The position numbers and the translations under genes are program-made. Shown one piece after another: positions 1 through 44,996 of a stretch of DNA of 44,996 bases. The stretch is taken from sequence record PZ789432.1, one strand, 5' to 3'. How positions within the stretch are numbered: the stretch's first letter is position 1; each line of letters starts with the position of its first letter. Source of the stretch: a phage. The notes under the pieces were generated by a model that searched no databases, was not told the origin of the DNA, and saw only the letters and a program-made list of their open reading frames with translations.

Positions 1-257
1 GCCCTCGCCGGGTTGCCCCCATATGGGGTAGATCGGCGGTTGACCTAGGAATTGGGCTGGGCTGGTCCGTCTTCGACGGGTGGGCGAGGGCTTGCCGAGG
101 TCTGCTCTTAGTGGCTGCACAAGGAGAACGCCTAGGAAGCGCTAGGGCACGCCTTAGTATTGGACAAGGTGATTGCCTTAGTGAAGCCTCTTAGTGCATT
201 CCTTAGGTCATTCAGGGCGTTTATGAGGGATTGACAGGGTGGATGCGTGTGTGGGCT
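1..257. repeat. left direct terminal repeat of the linear phage genome
   Basis: 1..257 recurs in the same orientation at 44742..44996. Contains the perfect palindrome CCCCATATGGGG at 17..28. The two copies differ by one substitution and a 2-nt indel at the inner edge (ggatgcgtgtgtgggct vs ggatgggtgtgggct). Confidence 0.85.
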
Positions 258-264
258 ATCTGTT
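258..264 (+). terminator. ATCTGTT motif, T7-type class II RNA polymerase pause/termination signal (concatemer-junction-like)
   Basis: Exact ATCTGTT immediately after the inner edge of the left terminal repeat (gtgtgtgggct|ATCTGTTcc), the same position as the T7 CJ pause site. Confidence 0.5.
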
Positions 265-595
265 CCTTTGCTACGCTCACTCACTGGTTCGCTGCGCTGC
301 GGTCAGTCGCTGATGTGTACCTTAGGTTATTCCTTGATGGATGGCTTAGGTTAGCCTTAGTGGACTACCTTAGTTAAAGCCTTAGTGCTTCAGCTTAGTA
401 TCAGCTTAGTAGTGTACCTTAGTCAGTCTTAGTGTCTTCTCTTAGTGATTGCACATGCTAAAGCATGTAAGATGCCATTAGGTCGCGGTCGGTAGACCGC
501 TAAAGAAGGAGAATGGTAATAAGATGCAGTAGGAGGAACACCAGAAACCTAGCCAACCTAGCCTATCCTAGCTCTGTATCTATTGCTTTTCCTTA

Positions 596-611
596 GTCTA
601 ACATGTGAGAC
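596..611. repeat. near-copy (1 mismatch) of the 16-bp palindrome GTCTCACATGTGAGAC
   Basis: gtctaacatgtgagac; differs from the perfect copies at one position. Confidence 0.5.
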
Positions 612-645
612 AACCTAGATTTATCTTAGTGATGATATCTTAGTG

Positions 646-674
646 TTGACAAGGCCGTCTCAATATAATACTAT
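646..674 (+). promoter_or_regulatory. sigma70-like early promoter (TTGACA, 17 bp spacer, TACTAT)
   Basis: Perfect -35 TTGACA at 646..651; -10 TACTAT at 669..674 after a 17-bp spacer; upstream of the first early genes, as for T7 A-type promoters. Confidence 0.5.
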
Positions 675-817
675 TCATCACGTAGGCAGCACTGAGGTGC
701 TTAGTAGCCAGCTAGTAAGGCATACGAAGAGACTAGCGCTTACATTGCTCTTTAACAATTTGCTTAGTGTAACCTATGTATGCCGTGGTTAATTACTTAT
801 TGAATGAGGGATTAACT

Positions 818-997
818 ATGACATTAAACAACCGTGAACTATCCGTTCTCTTCACTCTGTTGTGCTACATGATTCGTAACAACGAATTACTTACAGACGA
901 TGAGTTAGCCTTGTATCACCGCTTTCTTAACGAAGGTTGGACCGATACAATTAATCAATACCGTAACATGATAGATGAGTTGAGGGAGGGTAAATAA
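818..997 (+). CDS. hypothetical early protein (59 aa, mildly acidic)
   Basis: ORF track 776..997; preferred start ATG 818 preceded by GAGGGA; stop overlaps the next start (TAATG). Confidence 0.6.
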   Translation: MTLNNRELSVLFTLLCYMIRNNELLTDDELALYHRFLNEGWTDTINQYRNMIDELREGK

Positions 998-1221
998 TGT
1001 ATCAGCATGAGGTTTTCTTTGAGTCAGCTAGTGAAGCTATCCGCTTCCTTGAAGATATGCTACAAGCTGGCGTAGGTGTTGATGTACATCACTTCCTACT
1101 AGATTACGACACTGAATATCACCGAGTTACCTTAGTATCTGAGTATGACAACCAAGTCATTACTGAGTACCTAGGCAGTGAAGATTACGATTACGATGAA
1201 GTAATCACGACAAATCTCTAA
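997..1221 (+). CDS. hypothetical early protein, 74 aa, strongly acidic and aromatic-rich (candidate DNA mimic / anti-defense)
   Basis: ORF track; SD GAGGGAGGG upstream; about 17 Asp/Glu against 2 Arg and no Lys, 7 Tyr; translationally coupled to the upstream ORF; immediately upstream of ocr. Confidence 0.65.
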   Translation: MYQHEVFFESASEAIRFLEDMLQAGVGVDVHHFLLDYDTEYHRVTLVSEYDNQVITEYLGSEDYDYDEVITTNL

Positions 1222-1229
1222 ATTAACTG

Positions 1230-1258
1230 TTGACAGCCACGGCATACAAGGTTACATT
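1230..1258 (+). promoter_or_regulatory. sigma70-like early promoter (TTGACA, 17 bp spacer, TACATT)
   Basis: TTGACA at 1230..1235, -10-like TACATT at 1253..1258. Confidence 0.4.
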
Positions 1259-1350
1259 AAGCATCAAGACGGCGACGTCTTTAAACATCCCGCTCTTTAA
1301 CAATATGGTTTGTGTCTTGATAGGCTAACTAACTAACTAAGGTAATTATC

Positions 1351-1461
1351 ATGAAAGGTTTAATTTGTGTAGAACGTATGGTCAATGGTAAACTTGAAAT
1401 ATTACCACTGGAAAACCAATCTAGCTTCAAAGAGTGGTATGGCTGTTTCTCACTGATTTAA
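1351..1461 (+). CDS. hypothetical small early protein (36 aa)
   Basis: ATG 1351 preceded by ctaactaactaAGGtaattatc, the same leader context as ocr; below the ORF-track size cutoff. Confidence 0.3.
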   Translation: MKGLICVERMVNGKLEILPLENQSSFKEWYGCFSLI

Positions 1462-1612
1462 GGTAAAGGCTGGCATTAGTCAGCCTATCAAGGCGCAAAC
1501 CAAGCTCTTTAACAATTTGGATGGTAGCTTCTTAGTCTGGATAGGTTAAACCTAGGGGATTCTCTTGAGTCTCCTATAATGTAACCTAACTAACTAAATG
1601 AGGATTAATAAC

Positions 1613-1966
1613 ATGGCTATGTCTAATATGACTTACTCTCAGGTTTACAACACCGCTCATGCTGCATTAGTTGAACGTATCTGGAATGATGCTATTGATT
1701 GTATTGATAACGCACATGATGCAATCCATGATGCGGCGGATAGTGCTGTACCAATCTATTATGCTGACATCTTCTCCGTGATGGCGAGTGAAGGAATTGA
1801 TCATTTCTTCGAAGACTCCGGCCTGATGCCAGACACTAAGGATGTAACCGTAGTATTGCAAGCCCGTATCTATGAGCAACTCACAATTGATCTATGGGAA
1901 CGTGTTCAGTATATGATTGTTGAATACGTCAACTCCGCCGAATATTTAGAAGAAGAAGAGGAATAA
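1613..1966 (+). CDS. ocr: Ocr-like anti-restriction protein (T7 gp0.3 homolog, DNA mimic)
   Basis: Translation MAMSNMTY...[49 protein letters not shown]...EEEEE aligns over its full length with T7 Ocr as I remember it (117 aa); SD GAGG upstream of ATG 1613. Confidence 0.9.
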
Positions 1967-1968
1967 GA

Positions 1969-2082
1969 ATGGAAAAGCTATACAACTTCATCTTTTCAGA
2001 CGGTGTAACCCTGAAGTGTTCCCTGCGTTTCGCACAAATTCGTGAGGAAGTACTAGGCACTACATACAAACTATTTAGCTGA
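1969..2082 (+). CDS. hypothetical small protein (37 aa)
   Basis: ATG 1969 with GAGG 8 nt upstream; overlaps a promoter-like sequence; weak. Confidence 0.25.
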   Translation: MEKLYNFIFSDGVTLKCSLRFAQIREEVLGTTYKLFS

Positions 2083-2098
2083 CACTATAAGAGAAGGC
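2074..2098 (+). promoter_or_regulatory. phage RNAP promoter-like sequence (variant: atttagctgacactataagagaag)
   Basis: Matches the SP6-type core GACACTATA but has A in place of the +1 G; activity uncertain. Confidence 0.35.
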
Positions 2099-2158
2099 TT
2101 AACAAGGCGTTGCTACGGTAGCGCCTGATTAAACTTTCACTTACTAGGAGTTAAGACT

Positions 2159-2386
2159 ATGGATTTAGATAGCATCATTATGGCATTTGCTCTTATTGGC
2201 TTAAGCTGGTGCTCCTATAACCTTTACCGTGAGTTCTTATTTGATAAAGCTAAACGCAAACTAAGAAAAGAAGGCGGCAATTACCTTTGTGTAAGAGGTG
2301 GGCTTGTAGAATACATTGCACCTAACGGCACGGAATGCGCCATTAGCAAAGATGCATTTATAGAAACGTGGCATTACATCAAGTAA
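2159..2386 (+). CDS. hypothetical early membrane protein (75 aa, N-terminal TM helix)
   Basis: ORF track; SD AGGAG upstream; hydrophobic N-terminus IIMAFALIGLSW. Confidence 0.6.
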   Translation: MDLDSIIMAFALIGLSWCSYNLYREFLFDKAKRKLRKEGGNYLCVRGGLVEYIAPNGTECAISKDAFIETWHYIK

Positions 2387-2449
2387 CTAGCCTATAGCCT
2401 ACCTGAGTGGGCTATGTGATATTTACTTACACTATATAAGGTGACTATT

Positions 2450-3373
2450 ATGACTACTGAAAACATCCTCCTGTCTGTCCGTGAAGCTGCAACCGCTGAG
2501 ATTAAGCAGCATTTGGATAATATCGGCACTTCTTACATCAAAGTTGGCGCTTGTCTGAATGAATTACGCGGTGATTTCGAAGGTCAAAAAGACTTTTTAG
2601 CTTATGTCGAATCAGAGTTCGGCATCAAGAAAGCACAATGCTACAAGCTGATGAGTGTAGCCCGTGTCTTTGAAGGAGACGAACGCTTTAAAGGTGTGGC
2701 TATGCGTGTAATGCTGGCGCTTGTTCCTTTCGCTGATGAAAATATGATCATGGAGAAGGCCGCAGAACTCGCCGCAGAGGGCAAGCTGGACACTAACGCC
2801 GTAAACGCCCTGATTGATCCTAAGAAAGAGACAAAGGCCGAGACGGTACAACCTAAGGTTGAGTCGGTAAAACCGCAGGAGAACGCGACTGAGGCCGCAG
2901 AAACTATGCAAGGACATGCAACCTTTGAGGATTTCATATTAGAGAAGGCGAAAGAGGAGCTACAAAGTGTGCCGCCAGCAAGTGAGTCGGATGACGACAA
3001 ATCAGCACCGTGGGAAGAGGAAAGCAAGCCGGAAGCGCCAAAGACTGCGCCACTGGACAACACGGCTAACACCGAGAGTGCCGCTATTGCTGGCCTTCTG
3101 GCACAAATTAAAGCACTGACTGAGCAATTACAGGCAGCCAATGACCGCATCGCCTCCTTAAGTAGCGCACGCGAAAGCAAGAAGGCAGCCGCGCCTATGC
3201 TGCCGCAATTCAAATCTTCCTGCTTCTATGCTCGCTTAGGTTTAAGCGCTGAGGAGGCAACGAAGAAAACAGCAGTTAACAAGGCACGCCGCGAACTGGT
3301 TAAGCTAGGCTACGGCGAAGGCCATGAAGCATGGCCCTTAATCTCTGAGGCAGTAGAAGAATTAACTAAGTAA
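2450..3373 (+). CDS. hypothetical early protein (307 aa), Ala/Glu-rich with a C-terminal coiled-coil-like region
   Basis: ORF track 2441..3373 starts at GTG; ATG at 2450 preceded by AAGGTG. Sits where T7 has gp0.7, but I see no kinase motifs. Confidence 0.7.
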   Translation: MTTENILLSVREAATAEIKQHLDNIGTSYIKVGACLNELRGDFEGQKDFLAYVESEFGIKKAQCYKLMSVARVFEGDERFKGVAMRVMLALVPFADENMIMEKAAELAAEGKLDTNAVNALIDPKKETKAETVQPKVESVKPQENATEAAETMQGHATFEDFILEKAKEELQSVPPASESDDDKSAPWEEESKPEAPKTAPLDNTANTESAAIAGLLAQIKALTEQLQAANDRIASLSSARESKKAAAPMLPQFKSSCFYARLGLSAEEATKKTAVNKARRELVKLGYGEGHEAWPLISEAVEELTK

Positions 3374-3436
3374 CCTTATCGGTGGCATCTTCTTAGGTGT
3401 CACCTATTAAGGTTTCTTTCACTAGGAGTAAACAAG

Positions 3437-6064
3437 ATGCAAGACCTACACGCTATTCAACTTCAACTTGAAGAAGAAATGTTTAACGGCGGTATCCGTC
3501 GCTTTGAAGCGGACCAACAACGCCAGATTGCATCCGGTAATGAATCAGACACGGCATGGAATCGCCGCTTATTGTCCGAGTTAATCGCGCCAATGGCTGA
3601 AGGTATTCAGGCTTATAAGGAAGAGTACGAAGGCAAGCGCGGTCGTGCACCACGTGCATTGGCTTTCATTAACTGCGTAGAAAATGAAGTGGCAGCGTAT
3701 ATCACGATGAAAATCGTAATGGATATGCTTAACACTGATGTAACCTTGCAGGCTATAGCCATGAATGTAGCTGACCGCATTGAGGACCAAGTACGTTTTA
3801 GCAAGCTGGAAGGTCACGCCGCCAAATACTTTGAGAAAGTTAAGAAGTCACTTAAGGCAAGTAAGACTAAATCATATCGCCATGCGCACAACGTAGCGGT
3901 CGTGGCTGAGAAGTCAGTAGCTGACCGTGACGCTGATTTCTCTCGCTGGGAGGCGTGGCCTAGAGATACCTTGCTACAAATTGGTATGACCTTGCTAGAA
4001 ATACTGGAAAATAGTGTATTCTTCAATGGTCAGCCTGTCTTTCTTCGCACCTTGCGCACTAATGGTGGCAAGCATGGCGTTTACTACTTACAGACTAGCG
4101 AACACGTGGGTGAATGGATAACTGCATTTAAAGAGCACGTAGCTCAGCTGAGTCCAGCCTATGCACCTTGCGTTATTCCTCCGCGTCCGTGGGTTTCTCC
4201 GTTTAATGGTGGCTTTCACACCGAGAAGGTGGCAAGTCGCATCCGTCTAGTAAAAGGTAACCGTGAGCACGTCCGTAAGCTGACTAAAAAGCAAATGCCA
4301 GCGGTTTACAAGGCTGTTAACGCCTTACAAGCTACTAAGTGGCAGGTTAACAAGGAAGTATTGCAGGTAGTAGAAGATGTTATTCGTCTAGACCTCGGTT
4401 ATGGTGTACCTTCCTTTAAGCCGCTCATTGACCGCGAGAACAAACCAGCTAACCCTGTTCCTCTTGAGTTCCAGCACCTGCGAGGCCGTGAACTTAAAGA
4501 GATGCTAACGCCGGAACAATGGCAAGCCTTTATAAACTGGAAAGGAGAATGTACCAAGCTGTATACCGCTGAAACTAAGCGCGGAAGCAAGTCGGCGGCG
4601 ACCGTTCGCATGGTTGGACAAGCCCGTAAATACAGCCAGTTTGACGCAATTTATTTTGTGTATGCACTGGACAGCCGTTCACGCGTTTATGCGCAATCTA
4701 GCACGCTCTCGCCGCAATCAAACGACTTAGGCAAGGCATTGCTCCGTTTTACCGAAGGGCAGCGTCTTGATAGCACTGAGGCGCTTAAGTGGTTTTTGGT
4801 GAACGGGGCGAATAACTGGGGTTGGGATAAGAAAACTTTTGACGTGCGCACCGCTAACGTGCTGGATAGCGAATTTCAAGACATGTGCCGCGACATTGCA
4901 GCGGATCCGCTGACCTTCACTCAATGGGTAAATGCTGATTCCCCTTATGGCTTCCTTGCATGGTGCTTTGAATATGCGCGTTATCTGGATGCACTGGACG
5001 AAGGAACGCAAGACCAATTCATGACGCACCTACCCGTCCATCAAGATGGTAGTTGCTCTGGTATCCAGCACTATAGCGCGATGTTACGAGATGAAGTAGG
5101 TGCGAAAGCAGTAAACCTTAAGCCTTCTGACTCCCCTCAAGATATTTATGGCGCGGTTGCGCAGGTTGTTATCCAGAAGAATTACGCCTACATGAATGCA
5201 GACGACGCAGTGACTTTCACATCCGGAAGCGTCACACTTACAGGTGCAGAACTGCGTAGCATGGCTAGTGCGTGGGATATGATAGGAATCACTCGCGGCC
5301 TGACCAAAAAGCCCGTAATGACACTACCTTATGGCAGCACACGTCTAACCTGCCGTGAGTCAGTGATTGATTATATCGTTGATTTAGAAGAAAAAGAGGC
5401 CCAACGAGCTATTGCGGAAGGGCGTACCGCCAATCCTGTACACCCTTTTGATAATGACCGTAAGGACAGCCTGACACCTAGCGCAGCTTATAACTATATG
5501 ACAGCTTTAATCTGGCCTTCTATTTCGGAAGTGGTTAAAGCTCCTATAGTGGCGATGAAAATGATTCGTCAGCTTGCCCGTTTCGCAGCTAAAAGGAATG
5601 AAGGCTTAGAGTATACCTTGCCTACTGGCTTCATCTTGCAACAAAAGATTATGGCTACTGATATGCTCCGCGTATCCACTTGCCTGATGGGAGAAATCAA
5701 GATGAGTCTCCAGATTGAAACGGACGTAGTGGATGAAACGGCTATGATGGGCGCTGCTGCTCCTAACTTTGTGCATGGTCATGATGCCAGTCACCTTATC
5801 TTAACGGTCTGCGACCTTGTTGATAAAGGGATTACATCTATCGCAGTAATTCATGATTCTTTTGGCACTCATGCAGGTCGCACCGCAGACCTACGTGATA
5901 GTCTAAGGGCAGAAATGGTGAAGATGTATCAAGGCCGTAACGCTCTGCAAAGCCTGTTAGATGAGCATGAAGAACGCTGGTTAGTAGACACCGGAATCCA
6001 AGTGCCAGAGCAAGGAGAGTTTGACCTTAACGAAATCTTAGTATCTGACTATTGCTTCGCATAA
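3437..6064 (+). CDS. single-subunit DNA-dependent RNA polymerase (SP6-type)
   Basis: 875 aa; N-terminus [32 protein letters not shown] and C-terminus ...[12 protein letters not shown]...[10 protein letters not shown] closely match SP6 RNAP as I remember it; T7-family motifs present ([39 protein letters not shown]). Confidence 0.97.
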
Positions 6065-6073
6065 TATTAATAG

Positions 6074-6104
6074 GCCATTCCTTAGGGAGTGGCCTTTTCT
6101 TTTA
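6074..6104 (+). terminator. intrinsic terminator after the RNAP gene
   Basis: Hairpin ggccattcc-ttag-ggagtggcc (9-bp stem, one G-U pair) followed by TTTTCTTTT. Confidence 0.6.
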
Positions 6105-6137
6105 CCTATTACCTGTAACATTTAATTAACATAACCG

Positions 6138-6153
6138 TGTCTCACACGTGAGA
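6138..6153. repeat. 16-bp palindrome GTCTCACACGTGAGAC
   Basis: 7-bp inverted arms GTCTCAC/GTGAGAC; lies just upstream of a phage promoter. Confidence 0.8.
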
Positions 6154-6156
6154 CTT

Positions 6157-6179
6157 ATTTACCGGACACTATAGGATAA
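6157..6179 (+). promoter_or_regulatory. phage RNAP promoter (atttaccggacactatagg)
   Basis: Matches the genome-wide consensus ATTTACYGGACACTATAG; predicted +1 G at 6174. Confidence 0.7.
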
Positions 6180-6320
6180 CCGTCGGAGACGGAAAGAAAG
6201 GGAAGATAAAGGATATAAAAGGAAGTAATAGGTATTAAAGGTTATATAGGTTTACCTAGGAATACCTATTACCTTCTTCCTTCCTCTTATTACTACTTAA
6301 AGGAAGGGCAGACCTAAGTT

Positions 6321-6336
6321 GTCTCACATGTGAGAC
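6321..6336. repeat. 16-bp perfect palindrome GTCTCACATGTGAGAC
   Basis: Same family as 6138..6153; just upstream of a second phage promoter. Confidence 0.8.
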
Positions 6337-6341
6337 TTCGT

Positions 6342-6364
6342 ATTTACCGGACAATATAGATAAG
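6342..6364 (+). promoter_or_regulatory. phage RNAP promoter variant (atttaccggacaatatagataag)
   Basis: One core mismatch (C to A); second of two tandem promoters upstream of the gene 1.1-like ORF, as phi1.1A/phi1.1B in T7. Confidence 0.55.
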
Positions 6365-6389
6365 ACTAACTTACTTTGGAGATTTAACC

Positions 6390-6518
6390 ATGCGTAACTT
6401 TGAGAAGATGACCCGTAAAGCTAACCGTTTTGACATGGAAGAAGGGCAGACGAAAGGCAAGAAGCTGAATAAGCCTGTCCGTGACCGTGCATCTAAACGC
6501 GCAGCATGGGAGTTCTGA
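6390..6518 (+). CDS. T7 gene 1.1-like small basic protein (42 aa)
   Basis: MRNFEKMTRKANRFDMEEGQTKGKKLNKPVRDRASKRAAWEF resembles T7 gp1.1 as I remember it; SD GGAG upstream; below ORF-track cutoff. Confidence 0.6.
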   Translation: MRNFEKMTRKANRFDMEEGQTKGKKLNKPVRDRASKRAAWEF

Positions 6519-6521
6519 GTT

Positions 6522-6740
6522 ATGGCTAAATACAGAATCAAGACCTGTTTAAATAGTCACGGGCAAGAATTCTACGTAGTGCAACGTAAAGTATTAGGCT
6601 TAATATGGCTCACTTGTATGATGCCTATTGGCTATACTGATACAGAGGCTATCTTCTGCACCGAAAGGGATGCAAAGAAGTTTATCTCTAAGCGTAGAAA
6701 AGCTGACTCTTACCAACCTAGAATTATTAAGGTGAACTAA
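6522..6740 (+). CDS. hypothetical protein (72 aa)
   Basis: ORF track; between gene 1.1-like and primase-helicase. Confidence 0.55.
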   Translation: MAKYRIKTCLNSHGQEFYVVQRKVLGLIWLTCMMPIGYTDTEAIFCTERDAKKFISKRRKADSYQPRIIKVN

Positions 6741-8728
6741 TGGCTATTATTAATAACATCCCGTGCCCTGCCTGTCAAAAGAATGGACATGATATTACTG
6801 GCAACCATCTTATGATATTTGAGGATGGCGCTGGTTACTGTAACCGTGGTCACTTCCATGATAATGGTAAGCCTTATTACCATAAGCCAGAGGGTGGTAT
6901 CGAGATAACCGAATTGCCTATTACTGGCAATATCAAATATACACCTTCTCAATTCAAAGAAATGGAGAAGGAAGGGAAGATAAGCGACCCTAAGCTACGC
7001 GCCATCGCACTTGGTGGTATGCGTATGAAAGATCGTTGGGAGGTCATGAATGAGCAAGAAAGGGCAGACCAAGAAGCAGAGTGGAAGCTTGATGTTGAAT
7101 GGTTCCTCACGCTTAAGCGTAAGAACCTTGTATCCCGTCACATTCGAGGTGACATCGCAGCAATGTACGATGTGCGCGTTGGACACGATGAAGAGGGAAG
7201 AGTCAACCGTCACTATTATCCACGATATGAAAAGGGTGTGCTTGTTGGAGCAAAATGCCGGACGTTGCCGAAGGATTTTAAGTTCGGACACCTAGGTAAA
7301 CTCTTTGGTATGCAAGACCTTTTCGGTATGAACACTTTGTCTCACGTGTTAGACAAGGGGAGACGAAAGGATTGCTTGCTTATTGTAGGCGGTGAACTTG
7401 ATGCACTAGCAGCGCAGCAGATGCTCCTTGATTCTGCCAAGGGTACTAAGTGGGAAGGCCAGCCATACCATGTATGGTCTGTCAACAAAGGCGAGTCTTG
7501 TCTTGAAGAGATAGTGCAAAACCGTGAGCATATCGCCCAATTCAAGAAGATTATATGGGGTTTTGATGGAGATGAGGTAGGGCAGAAGCAGAATCAGCAA
7601 GCGGCTCGCCTGTTTCCTGGCAAATCCTATATCCTTGAATACCCCTCTGGTTGCAAAGATGCTAACAAGGCATTGATGGCTGGCAAGGCTAAAGAGTTTG
7701 TAGATGCATGGTTTAATGCCAAGTCATCTGATGAAGTCTTTGGTAGCCAGATTAAATCTATCGCATCTCAAAGGGATAAGCTCAAGGCTGCACGTCCAGA
7801 GCAAGGACTATCATGGCCTTGGCCTAAGCTGAACAAGGTCACGCTAGGTATTCGTAAGAACCAACTTATCATTGTAGGCGCAGGCTCTGGTGTAGGTAAG
7901 ACTGAGTTCCTTCGTGAAGTAGTTAAGCACCTCATTGAAGAACACGGTGAATCTGTAGGCATCATTTCTACAGAAGACCCGATGGTCAAGGTGTCCCGTG
8001 CTTTTATCGGCAAGTGGATTGATAAGCGCATTGAGTTACCGCCAACCAACGACCCGAAAGAAGATGGATACCGTGAGGTGTTCGACTACACCGAGGAAGA
8101 GGCTAACGCCGCCATTGATTATGTAGCTGATACAGGTAAGCTGTTTGTAGCTGACCTAGAGGGTGACTATTCGATGGAAAAGGTAGAGCAAACTTGCCTA
8201 GAGTTTGAGGCTATGGGCATTTCTAATATCATCATTGATAACTTAACGGGGATTAAATTAGATGAGCGTGCTTTTGGTGGGAAGGTTGGTGCACTTGATG
8301 AATGCGTCAAGCGGATTGGTACTATCAAAGACCGACACCCGGTTACTATATTCCTTGTATCACACCTTACACGTCCTCCGGCAAACCGTACCCAACACGA
8401 AGAAGGTGGCGAGGTTATCCTTTCTGACTTCCGAGGCTCAGGCGCTATCGGATTCTGGGCATCTTACGCCTTGGGGATTGAGCGTAATACAAGAGCTGAA
8501 ACGCTTGACGAAAGGACTACCACGTACATCTCATGTGTCAAAGACCGCGACCAAGGAATATTTTCCGGTACTCGTATAATGCTTAAAGGTGATATTGCTA
8601 CTGGTCGATTACGTGAACCAGAGCAAAGATCTCGACCGTTTGATACTGGTGCTCCAAAAGAACAAACTGTACCAGAAGAAGTAGTGGATAAAGGAGGATT
8701 TATTGCTGACGAAGTTGAAGAGTTTTGA
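6740..8728 (+). CDS. DNA primase/helicase (T7 gp4-like)
   Basis: 662 aa; N-terminal zinc ribbon CPACQ...CNRGH; Walker A VGAGSGVGKTEF; acidic C-terminus ending EEF. Confidence 0.93.
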   Translation: MAIINNIPCPACQKNGHDITGNHLMIFEDGAGYCNRGHFHDNGKPYYHKPEGGIEITELPITGNIKYTPSQFKEMEKEGKISDPKLRAIALGGMRMKDRWEVMNEQERADQEAEWKLDVEWFLTLKRKNLVSRHIRGDIAAMYDVRVGHDEEGRVNRHYYPRYEKGVLVGAKCRTLPKDFKFGHLGKLFGMQDLFGMNTLSHVLDKGRRKDCLLIVGGELDALAAQQMLLDSAKGTKWEGQPYHVWSVNKGESCLEEIVQNREHIAQFKKIIWGFDGDEVGQKQNQQAARLFPGKSYILEYPSGCKDANKALMAGKAKEFVDAWFNAKSSDEVFGSQIKSIASQRDKLKAARPEQGLSWPWPKLNKVTLGIRKNQLIIVGAGSGVGKTEFLREVVKHLIEEHGESVGIISTEDPMVKVSRAFIGKWIDKRIELPPTNDPKEDGYREVFDYTEEEANAAIDYVADTGKLFVADLEGDYSMEKVEQTCLEFEAMGISNIIIDNLTGIKLDERAFGGKVGALDECVKRIGTIKDRHPVTIFLVSHLTRPPANRTQHEEGGEVILSDFRGSGAIGFWASYALGIERNTRAETLDERTTTYISCVKDRDQGIFSGTRIMLKGDIATGRLREPEQRSRPFDTGAPKEQTVPEEVVDKGGFIADEVEEF

Positions 8729-44741: not shown

Positions 44742-44996
44742 GCCCTCGCCGGGTTGCCCCCATATGGGGTAGATCGGCGGTTGACCTAGGAATTGGGCTG
44801 GGCTGGTCCGTCTTCGACGGGTGGGCGAGGGCTTGCCGAGGTCTGCTCTTAGTGGCTGCACAAGGAGAACGCCTAGGAAGCGCTAGGGCACGCCTTAGTA
44901 TTGGACAAGGTGATTGCCTTAGTGAAGCCTCTTAGTGCATTCCTTAGGTCATTCAGGGCGTTTATGAGGGATTGACAGGGTGGATGGGTGTGGGCT
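44742..44996. repeat. right direct terminal repeat
   Basis: Same orientation copy of 1..257; preceded by extra ctcgccctcgccctcgcc units that the truncated left copy does not show. Confidence 0.85.

Follow-up and report, generated by a model that had tools for sequence, protein, structure and literature searches.

Putative rrn-type boxA elements and predicted flanking RNA helices in the early region of a K1-5-like phage

The early region of a complete Vectrevirus genome (K1-5/K1E-like; K1-5/SP6-like), analysed over its whole length of 44,996 bases and referred to here as the window, carries three copies of a 13-nt box that is, by its sequence, an rrn-type boxA, the RNA site for NusB-NusE. Double-stranded RNA is predicted to start 1-15 nt 3' of every box, in the form of two long-range helices and one hairpin resembling R0.3 of T7. 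We consider it probable that this early region combines rrn-type boxA antitermination with helices that serve processing, and the phage seems to reuse the logic of ribosomal operons for transcription as well as processing.

The repeated box and the layout of the early region

A preliminary description of this DNA reported a conserved 13-nt box upstream of three early genes, and the three copies of GCTCTTTAACAAT were confirmed at 747-759, 1292-1304 and 1504-1516, all on the + strand. There are no other exact copies on either strand of the window, and 100 dinucleotide-preserving shuffles gave a mean of 0.00 and a maximum of 0. With up to 2 mismatches allowed the count is 4, which is not above chance, so that the significance rests on the exact triple match. 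The (T/A)TG extension described after the box is present as TTTG, TATG and TTTG, and the spacing of 60-110 nt to the early start codons corresponds to distances, counted from the start of each box, of 71 nt (ATG 818), 59 nt (ATG 1351) and 109 nt (ATG 1613, ocr). The starts given for the boxes were correct, while the ends at 1308 and 1520 each ran one base too long for a 16-mer. The boxes lie within the following layout.

646..674, + strand: P1, predicted early sigma-70-like promoter, TTGACA-17-TACTAT, 10/12 consensus matches
688..701, + strand: small hairpin AGCAC-UGAG-GUGCU, 5' of boxA1, in the boxB position of rrn leaders
747..759, + strand: putative boxA copy 1, GCTCTTTAACAAT, about 66 nt after the inferred P1 start
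818..1221, + strand: cassette within helix 1, gene 1 (818-997, phrog_9275) and gene 2 (997-1221, phrog_6403), from PHROG matches with no function assigned
1230..1258, + strand: P2, predicted early sigma-70-like promoter, TTGACA-17-TACATT, 10/12 consensus matches
1266..1281, + strand: small hairpin AAGACG-GCGA-CGUCUU with a GNRA loop, between the P2 start and boxA2, from folding
1292..1304, + strand: putative boxA copy 2, GCTCTTTAACAAT, about 27-29 nt after the inferred P2 start
1351..1461, + strand: 36-codon ORF within helix 2, from the ORF list
1504..1516, + strand: putative boxA copy 3, GCTCTTTAACAAT, lacking its own promoter, similar to the spacer boxA of rrn
1613..1966, + strand: ocr-like anti-restriction gene (phrog_2568, E 2.8e-46)
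2073..2093, + strand: first SP6-type phage-polymerase promoter, 3' of all three boxA copies
3437..6064, + strand: single-subunit phage RNA polymerase gene, final gene of the early unit
6072..6105, + strand: strong intrinsic-terminator-like hairpin with a T run, from sequence

The hexamers of P1 are identical in K1-5, P2 is kept throughout Vectrevirus and Zindervirus, and the P1 transcript would have its 5' start near 681. Transcription by the host polymerase likely ends at the 6072..6105 hairpin. A PHROG scan gave no match for the 36-codon ORF at 1351..1461, and relatives carry other small genes between the arms of helix 2. In K1-5, the counterpart of the 688..701 hairpin reads GGUGC-UGAG-GCACC, with three compensatory pair changes; the hairpin is probably dispensable, being missing from many related modules, and several relatives present unstructured sequence in place of the one at 1266..1281. 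A promoter belonging to boxA3 was considered and rejected: there is no sigma-70-like site 5' of this copy, and the TATCAA in the 3' arm has no -35 partner.

Sequence identity, position, strand and conservation of the box are direct observations, and they bear on its assignment as follows. The phage box and the leader boxA of E. coli rrnB have 16 consecutive bases, TGCTCTTTAACAATTT, in common, the T7 early region holds the identical 13-mer 3' of promoters A1-A3, and all three copies fit both the rrn boxA TGCTCTTTAACAA and GYTCTTTAANA, the functional gamma-proteobacterial boxA consensus reported in PMC5725501. In T7, boxA reportedly functions as an antiterminator, and phages mutated in it can do without gp2 (Savalia 2010, cited in PMC3709561). 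The copies are sense-oriented, stand 3' of predicted sigma-70-like promoters and all precede the phage promoter at 2073; boxA is thus confined to the stretch transcribed by the host polymerase, in line with the report that T7-type polymerases do not use Nus factors (PMC5725501). Centroid folds predict a single-stranded box in each of the three contexts, and no complementary partner is conserved alongside it. We regard it as very likely that the box functions as a boxA in this phage. An Rfam scan of positions 1-7000 (E up to 1) returned a chance microRNA match only; boxA and the cassette helices do not form a curated family.

The exact 12-mer occurs in 13 related phages (K1-5, K1E, SP6, Kenya-K31, PP1, Alpheus, Kpp-61, PM85, Kp_H01, R24D, Era103, PP99 and Tola), in 1-3 copies, on the + strand only and 5' of the polymerase gene. 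The hosts of SP6-supergroup phages with the 12-mer span seven genera, Escherichia, Salmonella, Klebsiella, Proteus, Pectobacterium, Vibrio and Pseudomonas, and the 12-mer is kept while its flanks diverge or are unrelated. Most one-base variants fall at free (degenerate) positions of the consensus; the third SP6 copy, GATCTTTAACAA, departs from it. The number of copies varies, three relatives having one and Roth32 none, and is therefore not essential.

Predicted double-stranded segments beside the boxes

The predicted double-stranded elements are the arms of two long-range helices and a local hairpin.

761..788, + strand: helix 1, 5' arm, TGCTTAGTGTAACCTaTGTATGCCGTGG, from inverted repeat and folding
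1237..1263, + strand: helix 1, 3' arm, CCACGGCATACAAGGTTACATTAAGCA, from inverted repeat and folding
1306..1332, + strand: helix 2, 5' arm, inverted repeat of 27 nt, 89% complementary, including the first ctaactaa
1476..1502, + strand: helix 2, 3' arm, ending 1 nt before boxA3
1532..1597, + strand: local two-tier hairpin, candidate RNase III site just 5' of ocr, folding z -4.2

Both helices are 27-30 bp long, enclose small gene cassettes and have their 3' ends just before the next boxA, and in every case, in the window as well as in relatives, the 5' arm begins 1-2 nt after the boxA 12-mer. Helix 1 (dG -48.8 kcal/mol, z -10.1) and helix 2 (dG -42.2, z -7.4) are each present in the MFE and the centroid structure of the whole transcript, with z-scores there of -5.8 and -4.5. 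The 3' arm of helix 1 overlaps the spacer and -10 of P2 and ends at the inferred P2 start site, and the first part of the 3' arm of helix 2 can alternatively form a local hairpin at 1467-1486. Complementarity and covariation were observed in the alignments, where 98.1% of cells are paired for helix 1 and 90% for helix 2, with 6 and 4 compensatory pairs, respectively, counts inflated by the many close relatives among the aligned sequences. Slid controls gave 22-44% paired cells, as against 98% and 90%. The non-Watson-Crick cells in the arms comprise 34 G.U and 4 A.C, an asymmetry that points to pairing of + strand RNA rather than DNA.

Across phage genomes, 26/28 consecutive boxA pairs in a first genome set enclose a helix, with 0/200 shuffles as good, and so do 7/7 in further genomes, with 0/100 shuffles as good; helix dG ranges from -37 to -61 kcal/mol, and the 2 of 28 pairs in which the helix is absent are copies 1-2 of L137 and copies 1-2 of PP1. 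The arm sequences of PP1, Alpheus, PM85 and R24D are unrelated, yet complementary, and across genomes the following sigma-70 promoter frequently falls on the 3' arm. A crude ungapped scan of viral contigs found the SP6-like helices again, together with what may be a second family in lambdoid phages, whose contigs also contain rrn-type boxA, and gives no basis for generality. On the folding and alignment evidence, the helices are very probably real RNA structures. They resemble the leader-trailer type in being long helices that flank genes and covary; what they enclose is protein-coding cassettes, and the rRNA enclosure and ribosome assembly that mark that family are absent. They work like the leader-trailer family of rRNA operons but are not members of it.

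Other elements in the same stretch were examined and discarded. In a short fold, ACGUAGG of the P1 leader (682-688) pairs with CCUAUGU (771-777); this pairing is absent from the full-transcript centroid and is lost in relatives with other upstream modules. A leftward promoter within the 5' arms, judged by eye, has no -35 in the window and altered key positions in Alpheus.

The third box is followed by the pre-ocr hairpin at 1532-1597, which has a 10-bp upper stem, a 4x5 internal loop and a 15-bp interrupted lower stem. RNase III sites of the T7 type typically consist of two stems with an internal loop between them, and the irregular double-stranded RNA of about 20 bp or more that characterizes them is found in this hairpin and not in the 13-nt box. 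Counted on a gap-free alignment with the stated structure, 98% of hairpin cells are paired, with 2 compensatory pairs. SP6, Kenya-K31 and L132, folded separately and compared with T7 R0.3, present the same pre-ocr shape with different upper stems; RNAalifold on the combined Vectrevirus and Zindervirus alignment gave a poor consensus, MAFFT having misaligned these differing stems. The 3' strand of the hairpin is ctaactaactaa, which had rightly been described as common to two of the leaders, at 1325-1336 (continuing to 1340) and 1586-1597. This sequence contains three TAA triplets, one in each reading frame.

Proposed mechanism and alternative readings

Factor binding, antitermination, cleavage and looping are the steps that we infer. 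Host RNA polymerase would start at P1 and P2, and the nascent RNA would expose GCUCUUUAACAA, to which NusB-NusE(S10) would bind. Together with NusA, NusG and SuhB, boxA would convert the polymerase into a faster form resistant to pausing and Rho, as in rRNA operons, and the modified enzyme would secure the early unit of roughly 5.4 kb, through its long untranslated leaders as far as the gene for the phage RNA polymerase. By staying tethered to the host polymerase, boxA could keep the 5' arm at the RNA exit channel for as long as the 3' arm, 170-480 nt downstream, takes to emerge. RNase III would then cut the 27-30 bp helices and the pre-ocr hairpin, freeing cassette mRNAs with paired ends and cutting off the spent boxA; the antitermination complex would be reloaded by the next copy.

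These parts differ in strength. From the predicted structures, cleavage of the helices and hairpin by RNase III is somewhat favoured, and assistance by boxA in forming the helices is a tentative proposal, modelled on the looping scheme that has experimental support for the leader-trailer helices of rRNA (PMC10250234; bioRxiv 10.64898/2026.03.17.712431). With similar reserve we suggest that the early operon of the SP6 supergroup may be a miniature rRNA operon for mRNA, with a tethered boxA, a co-transcriptional helix, an RNase III cut and a reload. Reloading after every cut is not consistently applied, since no boxA lies 3' of the pre-ocr hairpin. Translation of the early genes could itself guard against Rho, making antitermination less needed, and ribosomes on the enclosed genes might disturb the cassette helices. 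The literature searched contained no experiments on this phage group, and the promoters, starts, binding and cleavage given here are predictions; it likewise yielded nothing on boxA or RNase III sites in SP6/K1-5-type phages, and an earlier mention of boxA is possible in the SP6 and K1-5 genome papers and in Savalia 2010, which lay outside the search.

The preliminary description had likened the boxes to the RNase III processing sites that separate early cistrons in T7. Their position between early cistrons, the neighbourhood of the T7 box to R0.3 and the double-stranded segments nearby would suit this reading, and the comparison with T7 proved a good lead, the T7 box lying just 5' of the R0.3 RNase III hairpin. 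RNase III, however, requires about two helical turns of double-stranded RNA, and folding the box with its flanks left it unpaired in all three contexts, with conserved stems beside each copy. Its invariance next to covarying paired flanks is the pattern of a sequence-specific single-stranded site, and its sequence is that of a known NusB-NusE site. We give practically no credence to the box itself as the processing site; the suggestion survives for the flanks, which are predicted to form double-stranded RNA of RNase III-substrate size. The same description allowed for a regulatory-protein site. Exact repeats near promoters might indeed mark a DNA operator for a phage or host regulator of the early promoters, but the box is non-palindromic, keeps the sense orientation in all genomes examined, lies 27-240 nt 3' of the promoters within the transcribed leader, and has the sequence of an RNA element that is functional in rRNA operons and in T7; copy 3, moreover, has no promoter nearby; such an operator is very improbable. 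Lambda-like nut sites, at which a phage N-like protein would act on the small hairpins beside boxA, deserve equally little weight. Hairpins do stand 10-45 nt 5' of boxA1 (with compensatory changes) and of boxA2 (with a GNRA loop), but the order from hairpin to boxA is that of rrn and not the lambda-type boxA followed by a boxB hairpin with N, many related modules keep boxA without hairpins, and rrn-type boxA is reported to suffice without N (PMC10250234). No N-like gene was found among the PHROG matches of the early ORFs.

More can be said for cassettes at the DNA level, bounded by terminal inverted repeats, in which the boxA copies would be target duplications or recombination joints and not RNA signals. 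The layout of cassette 2 is symmetrical: the gene lies between the two arms of the 27-nt inverted repeat, and 1 nt separates each arm from a copy of the 13-bp direct repeat. Further, one boxA is joined to varying modules, and different genes lie between the same arms in different phages, so module exchange at boxA and arm sequences does happen. Against this, the excess of G.U over A.C is not expected of DNA repeats, the arms stay complementary although their sequences vary from cassette to cassette within one genome and from genus to genus, 3' arms double as promoters, the PHROG scan found no transposase or homing gene in the cassettes, and the repeated "target" is exactly the functional host consensus. 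Taken as a replacement for RNA signals, this reading is unlikely. Still less likely is that boxA serves mainly as a decoy drawing NusB, NusE and SuhB from host rRNA operons, or as a translational or Rho-promoting repressor in the manner of suhB. With strong early promoters and as many as three boxA on each transcript, the early RNA could bind NusB-NusE dimers in large numbers, and boxA-dependent repression is documented for suhB (PMC5725501). Nevertheless, the suhB boxA is close to the Shine-Dalgarno sequence, whereas the phage boxes stand 59-109 nt 5' of start codons with stems between; the fixed juxtaposition with helix arms is left unexplained, and the T7 data, as reported in the citing article, indicate antitermination.

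The boxA alone is ordinary, a host antitermination signal borrowed by the phage and known already from T7. Its combination with long-range helices around protein-coding cassettes, of which we found no description in the literature searched, bears on the Nus/boxA complex as an RNA-looping chaperone that joins distant RNA segments for processing, so far studied on rRNA only. If the looping proposed here is true, it would be the first natural non-ribosomal case of boxA-mediated RNA looping, conserved with unrelated arms in phages of enterobacteria, Vibrio and Pseudomonas. With three units in 900 nt, a wealth of natural variants and plaques or mRNA ends as a simple read-out, the phage region would make a compact test system. 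The finding also affects the annotation of the early region in K1-5/SP6-like therapeutic phages and the engineering of these phages: early expression may suffer from insertions placed between boxA and arm or within an arm that is also a promoter.

Comparison with known systems

The suhB 5' UTR and the leaders of CRISPR arrays are reported as cases in which rrn-type boxA works outside rRNA operons (PMC5725501; PMC7665894); unlike the phage copies, these are single elements acting on Rho termination or translation, and their coupling to leader-trailer helices is not described in the available text of PMC5725501. At nutL and nutR of lambda, as proposed for the phage, boxA and host Nus factors modify the host polymerase; the order of elements is reversed in the phage, with no evident requirement for N. 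The lambda boxA is a weaker form, and the phage boxA matches the full rrn consensus.

The T7 early region shares with the phage the same 13-mer and transcription by the host polymerase, and the order of boxA, two-tier hairpin and ocr at copy 3 is that of boxA, R0.3 and gene 0.3 in T7. T7, however, has one boxA for three promoters, where the present group has 2-3 copies, two of them coupled to long-range helices, and the RNase III sites known from T7 are local hairpins.

In rrn operons, the elements follow the order boxB-boxA-boxC, and the antitermination complex rrnTAC comprises NusA, B, E, G, SuhB and S4. E. coli rrn and the phage have in common an identical boxA core, a hairpin before boxA, a boxA about 30 nt after a promoter (for rrnB, the inferred P2), and a second, promoter-less boxA after the 3' strand (the spacer boxA); in rrnB, the 5' strand of the leader-trailer helix also begins directly after boxA, and the helices are of RNase III-substrate size in both (PMC10250234). 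The phage differs in that its helices, shorter than some of those of rRNA, enclose protein-coding cassettes of 0.15-0.45 kb instead of rRNA, that it has no conserved boxC sequence, that its 3' arm and the next sigma-70 promoter often coincide, and that three units stand in tandem within 900 nt of a virulent phage genome.

boxA in the early leaders

The first 255 or so bases of the window recur at its end (1-255 = 44742-44996), and it is therefore a complete linear genome with a direct terminal repeat. Escherichia phage 6948 is 97.9% identical over window 600-2200, a stretch that also matches many Vectrevirus genomes (K1-5/K1E group, SP6-like Molineuxvirinae). In T7-like phages, the left end is the first region transcribed by host RNA polymerase, and at the left end of the window lie three copies of a 13-nt box, GCTCTTTAACAAT. 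The preliminary description is confirmed: the box is exact at 747, 1292 and 1504 on the + strand, 71, 59 and 109 nt from box start to the start codons at 818, 1351 and 1613; it occurs nowhere else in the window (0.00 expected from shuffles). The motif ctaactaactaa, described as common to two leaders, was recovered at 1325 and 1586.

Features of the early region
646-674, predicted sigma-70-like promoter P1
747 (+), boxA1, first copy of the box
761-788, helix 1, 5' arm
818-1221, genes 1 and 2, between the helix 1 arms
1230-1258, predicted sigma-70-like promoter P2
1237-1263, helix 1, 3' arm
1292 (+), boxA2, second copy
1306-1332, helix 2, 5' arm
1351-1461, 36-codon ORF, between the helix 2 arms
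1476-1502, helix 2, 3' arm
1504 (+), boxA3, third copy
1532-1597, local hairpin before ocr
2073-2093 (+), first SP6-type phage promoter
3437-6064, single-subunit phage RNA polymerase gene
6072-6095, strong terminator-like hairpin after the polymerase gene

boxA1 has 16 consecutive bases in common with the E. coli rrnB leader cacTGCTCTTTAACAATTTatc, and T7 carries the identical 13-mer downstream of promoters A1-A3, just 5' of gene 0.3 and its RNase III hairpin, R0.3. According to PMC3709561, citing Savalia et al. 2010, the T7 element is a boxA anti-termination element whose mutation renders gp2 dispensable. PMC5725501 gives GYTCTTTAANA as the functional gamma-proteobacterial boxA consensus, which all three window copies fit, and reports Nus factors to be without effect on T7-type polymerases, in keeping with the confinement of the boxes upstream of the first phage promoter. 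Upstream of boxA1 and boxA2 are P1 and P2, each with 10 of 12 consensus matches; judged by its -10 hexamer, P2 would start about 27-29 nt before boxA2, and in rrnB boxA lies about 30 nt past the inferred P2 start.

Using the exact 12-mer GCTCTTTAACAA as search key, we found three copies in K1-5, K1E and Pectobacterium phage PP1, two plus one variant in SP6, two in Pseudomonas phage Alpheus, and further matches in Salmonella phage Kenya-K31 and 16 related viral contigs. Among further genomes taken as a test, Proteus PM85, Klebsiella Kp_H01 and Vibrio R24D have three copies, Klebsiella Kpp-61 two, Era103, PP99 and Tola one each, and Roth32 no exact copy. All early-region matches lie upstream of the polymerase gene and on its strand, within highly divergent flanks; the one-base variants GTTCTTTAACAA and GCTCTTTAATAA are consensus-compatible, and GATCTTTAACAA, seen once, falls outside. 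A conserved box on one strand amid variable flanks is what a strand- and sequence-specific RNA site would show; this and related points contradict a DNA operator. At least 120 IMG/VR contigs of many kinds (L006-L125 among the matches listed) carry the exact rrn-type boxA (GCTCTTTAACAATNYG), which is therefore not special to the SP6/K1-5 group. The matches listed include T7-/T3-like phages and lambdoid prophages, divergent promoter pairs with a boxA on each (L033, L042), and a promoter and boxA directly 5' of phage tRNA genes (L102, L103).

Several other elements were seen in the window. The hexamer CTTAGT(G) has 40 copies genome-wide, 17 of them in the first 800 bases, where its reverse complement is absent; the copies at 100-770 form a left-end array of short repeats that recalls those near the T7 left end, with one copy inside the helix 1 5' arm (763) and another in the pre-ocr hairpin (1531). 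There are seven SP6-type promoters (ATTTAnnnGACACTATAGAAG-like), all + (2073-2093, 9174, 10022, 15646, 18801, 24005, 40566), and a similar sequence at about 2420-2445, after a terminator-like hairpin (2393-2416). In the non-coding stretch beyond the polymerase gene terminator, the palindrome GTCTCACA(C/T)GTGAGAC occurs twice (6139-6154 and 6321-6336), each time with a T-rich tail, and an 18-nt inverted repeat lies between the two within 6219-6278.

Helices between successive boxA copies

The preliminary description compared the boxes to RNase III processing sites. Folding each box with its flanks does not bear this out for the box itself, which is unpaired in the centroid structures of single leaders and whole transcripts alike and has no conserved complementary partner. 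The suggested comparison with T7 R0.3 finds its counterpart beside it: boxA3 is followed not by a long-range helix but by a local two-tier hairpin (1532-1597, z -4.2) in the R0.3 position, with the ctaactaactaa motif as its 3' strand and ocr directly downstream.

A repeat search showed that 1306-1332, right after boxA2, is 89% complementary to 1476-1502, right before boxA3 (helix 2), and that 761-775 and 777-788, after boxA1, are complementary to 1249-1263 and 1237-1248 (helix 1), the helix 1 3' arm being the spacer and -10 region of P2. Folding full transcripts gave both helices, in the minimum-energy structure as well as the centroid (z -4.5 and -5.8), and no comparable inverted repeat was found elsewhere in 1-6300. 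The helix 2 5' arm includes the first ctaactaa motif, and the shared motif is therefore structural, besides supplying three-frame stop codons. The start of the helix 2 3' arm can instead pair locally at 1467-1486 (AGGCUGGC-AUUA-GUCAGCCU), a hairpin that covaries among relatives, with G.U pairs in SP6 and PP1, and that may be a transient structure preceding closure of the long-range helix.

For 28 consecutive boxA pairs from 16 genomes, the 45 nt downstream of one copy were paired with the 95 nt upstream of its successor; 26 gave duplex energies of -37 to -61 kcal/mol, with 0/200 shuffles as good, and copies 1-2 of L137, a related contig, and of PP1 lack such a helix. The start of the 5' arm is always 1-2 nt past the 12-mer. 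The arrangement recurs in PP1 and Alpheus with arms whose sequences are unrelated to the window's, and there the 3' arms double as sigma-70-like promoters. In PM85, Kp_H01, Kpp-61 and R24D, fetched later as a prediction test, the helix was present in 7/7 consecutive pairs (z -7.2 to -12.8). The paired fraction of cells was 98.1% in helix 1 (30 pairs, 6 compensatory; slid controls 24-38%) and 89.8% in helix 2 (25 pairs, 4 compensatory; slid controls 22-44%), in a sample with many close relatives, where cell counts overstate how many changes arose independently; stronger evidence comes from the unrelated arm pairs of distant genera. The pre-ocr hairpin is 98% paired with 2 compensatory pairs, and SP6, Kenya-K31 and L132 keep its shape with upper stems of different sequence. 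Sequence, position and conservation, together with the pairing of the arms, are observed features.

In several genera, the helix 3' arm is also the next sigma-70-like promoter (spacer, -10, often -35), with overlaps at window 1237-1263, L145 1306-1346, L143 2092-2127, and L153 ~1450-1500 and 1855-1892. By eye, no leftward promoter was found in the complementary 5' arm, which lacks the -35 or has changes at key positions.

RNA pairing or DNA repeats

The layout is symmetrical, and it suggests a DNA-level alternative in which the cassettes carry terminal inverted repeats and boxA is a duplicated target or recombination joint. Module exchange at boxA is indeed evident: the box is a mosaic junction in related loci (L003-L005, L126-L143), where one and the same 12-mer links at least three upstream module types (a helix arm, a promoter with a hairpin, or one without) to at least three downstream types. 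Different phages carry different small genes between the same helix arms, which suggests cassette exchange via recombination at conserved boxA/arm sequences. However, non-Watson-Crick cells number 18 G.U against 1 A.C in the helix 2 core and 16 against 3 in helix 1, an asymmetry expected for + strand RNA pairing and not for inverted repeats maintained in DNA. The DNA-level alternative leaves this bias unexplained, and against it also stand arm sequences that differ within one genome and a putative "target" matching a consensus that functions in the host; the exchange of modules is probably a by-product. A decoy or repressor role for boxA, or a lambda-like requirement for N protein, are possible readings that draw no specific support.

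boxA in T7 is already known. For the SP6/K1-5 group, the literature searched describes neither boxA nor RNase III sites nor long-range helices; the original SP6/K1-5 genome papers lie outside it and may already mention the boxA copies. Conserved boxA with leader-trailer-like helices around mRNA cassettes, and promoters within the 3' arms, appears undescribed.

A model drawn from the rRNA operon

We infer factor binding, antitermination, cleavage and looping at the phage elements; the most likely mechanism is as follows. Host polymerase from P1 or P2 would be converted via boxA to an rRNA-type antitermination complex, which would transcribe the early unit fast and Rho-resistantly. With boxA tethered, the 5' arm beside it would stay close to the exit channel, allowing the helix to form once the 3' arm appears; RNase III would then cleave the closed helix, and the following boxA would re-establish the link. 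Transcripts started at P2 would lack the helix 1 3' arm, since its end coincides with the inferred start, and processed and primary RNAs of the second unit would therefore start nearly alike.

A second boxA/long-range-helix case, or merely a repeated palindromic site, may be present in lambdoid contigs (L047, on the reverse strand, and about a dozen similar ones) that match phages such as SfIV near cI. There, CTGGATATCC... stands immediately 3' of boxA and has its complement, ...GGGGATATCCAG, 420-700 nt farther downstream; the 5' arms vary between contigs.

In E. coli rRNA operons (rrn), the order after P2 is boxB-boxA-boxC, with a second set before 23S; the helices are 25-40 bp and RNase III-cut, boxA is necessary and sufficient, and NusB-bound boxA is modeled as an anchor that keeps the 5' strand at the RNA exit channel while the trailer has yet to emerge (PMC10250234). 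In the 16S leader-trailer helix of rrnB, the 5' strand starts directly after boxA (trailer pairing -57.9 kcal/mol), and a second boxA (GCTCTTTAAAAATCTGG) lies in the spacer without a promoter of its own. The window repeats this design three times within 900 nt: a first unit of promoter, small hairpin, boxA, 5' arm, cassette and 3' arm; a second of next boxA, 5' arm, cassette and 3' arm; and a third of boxA, local hairpin and ocr, the phage cassettes being protein-coding.
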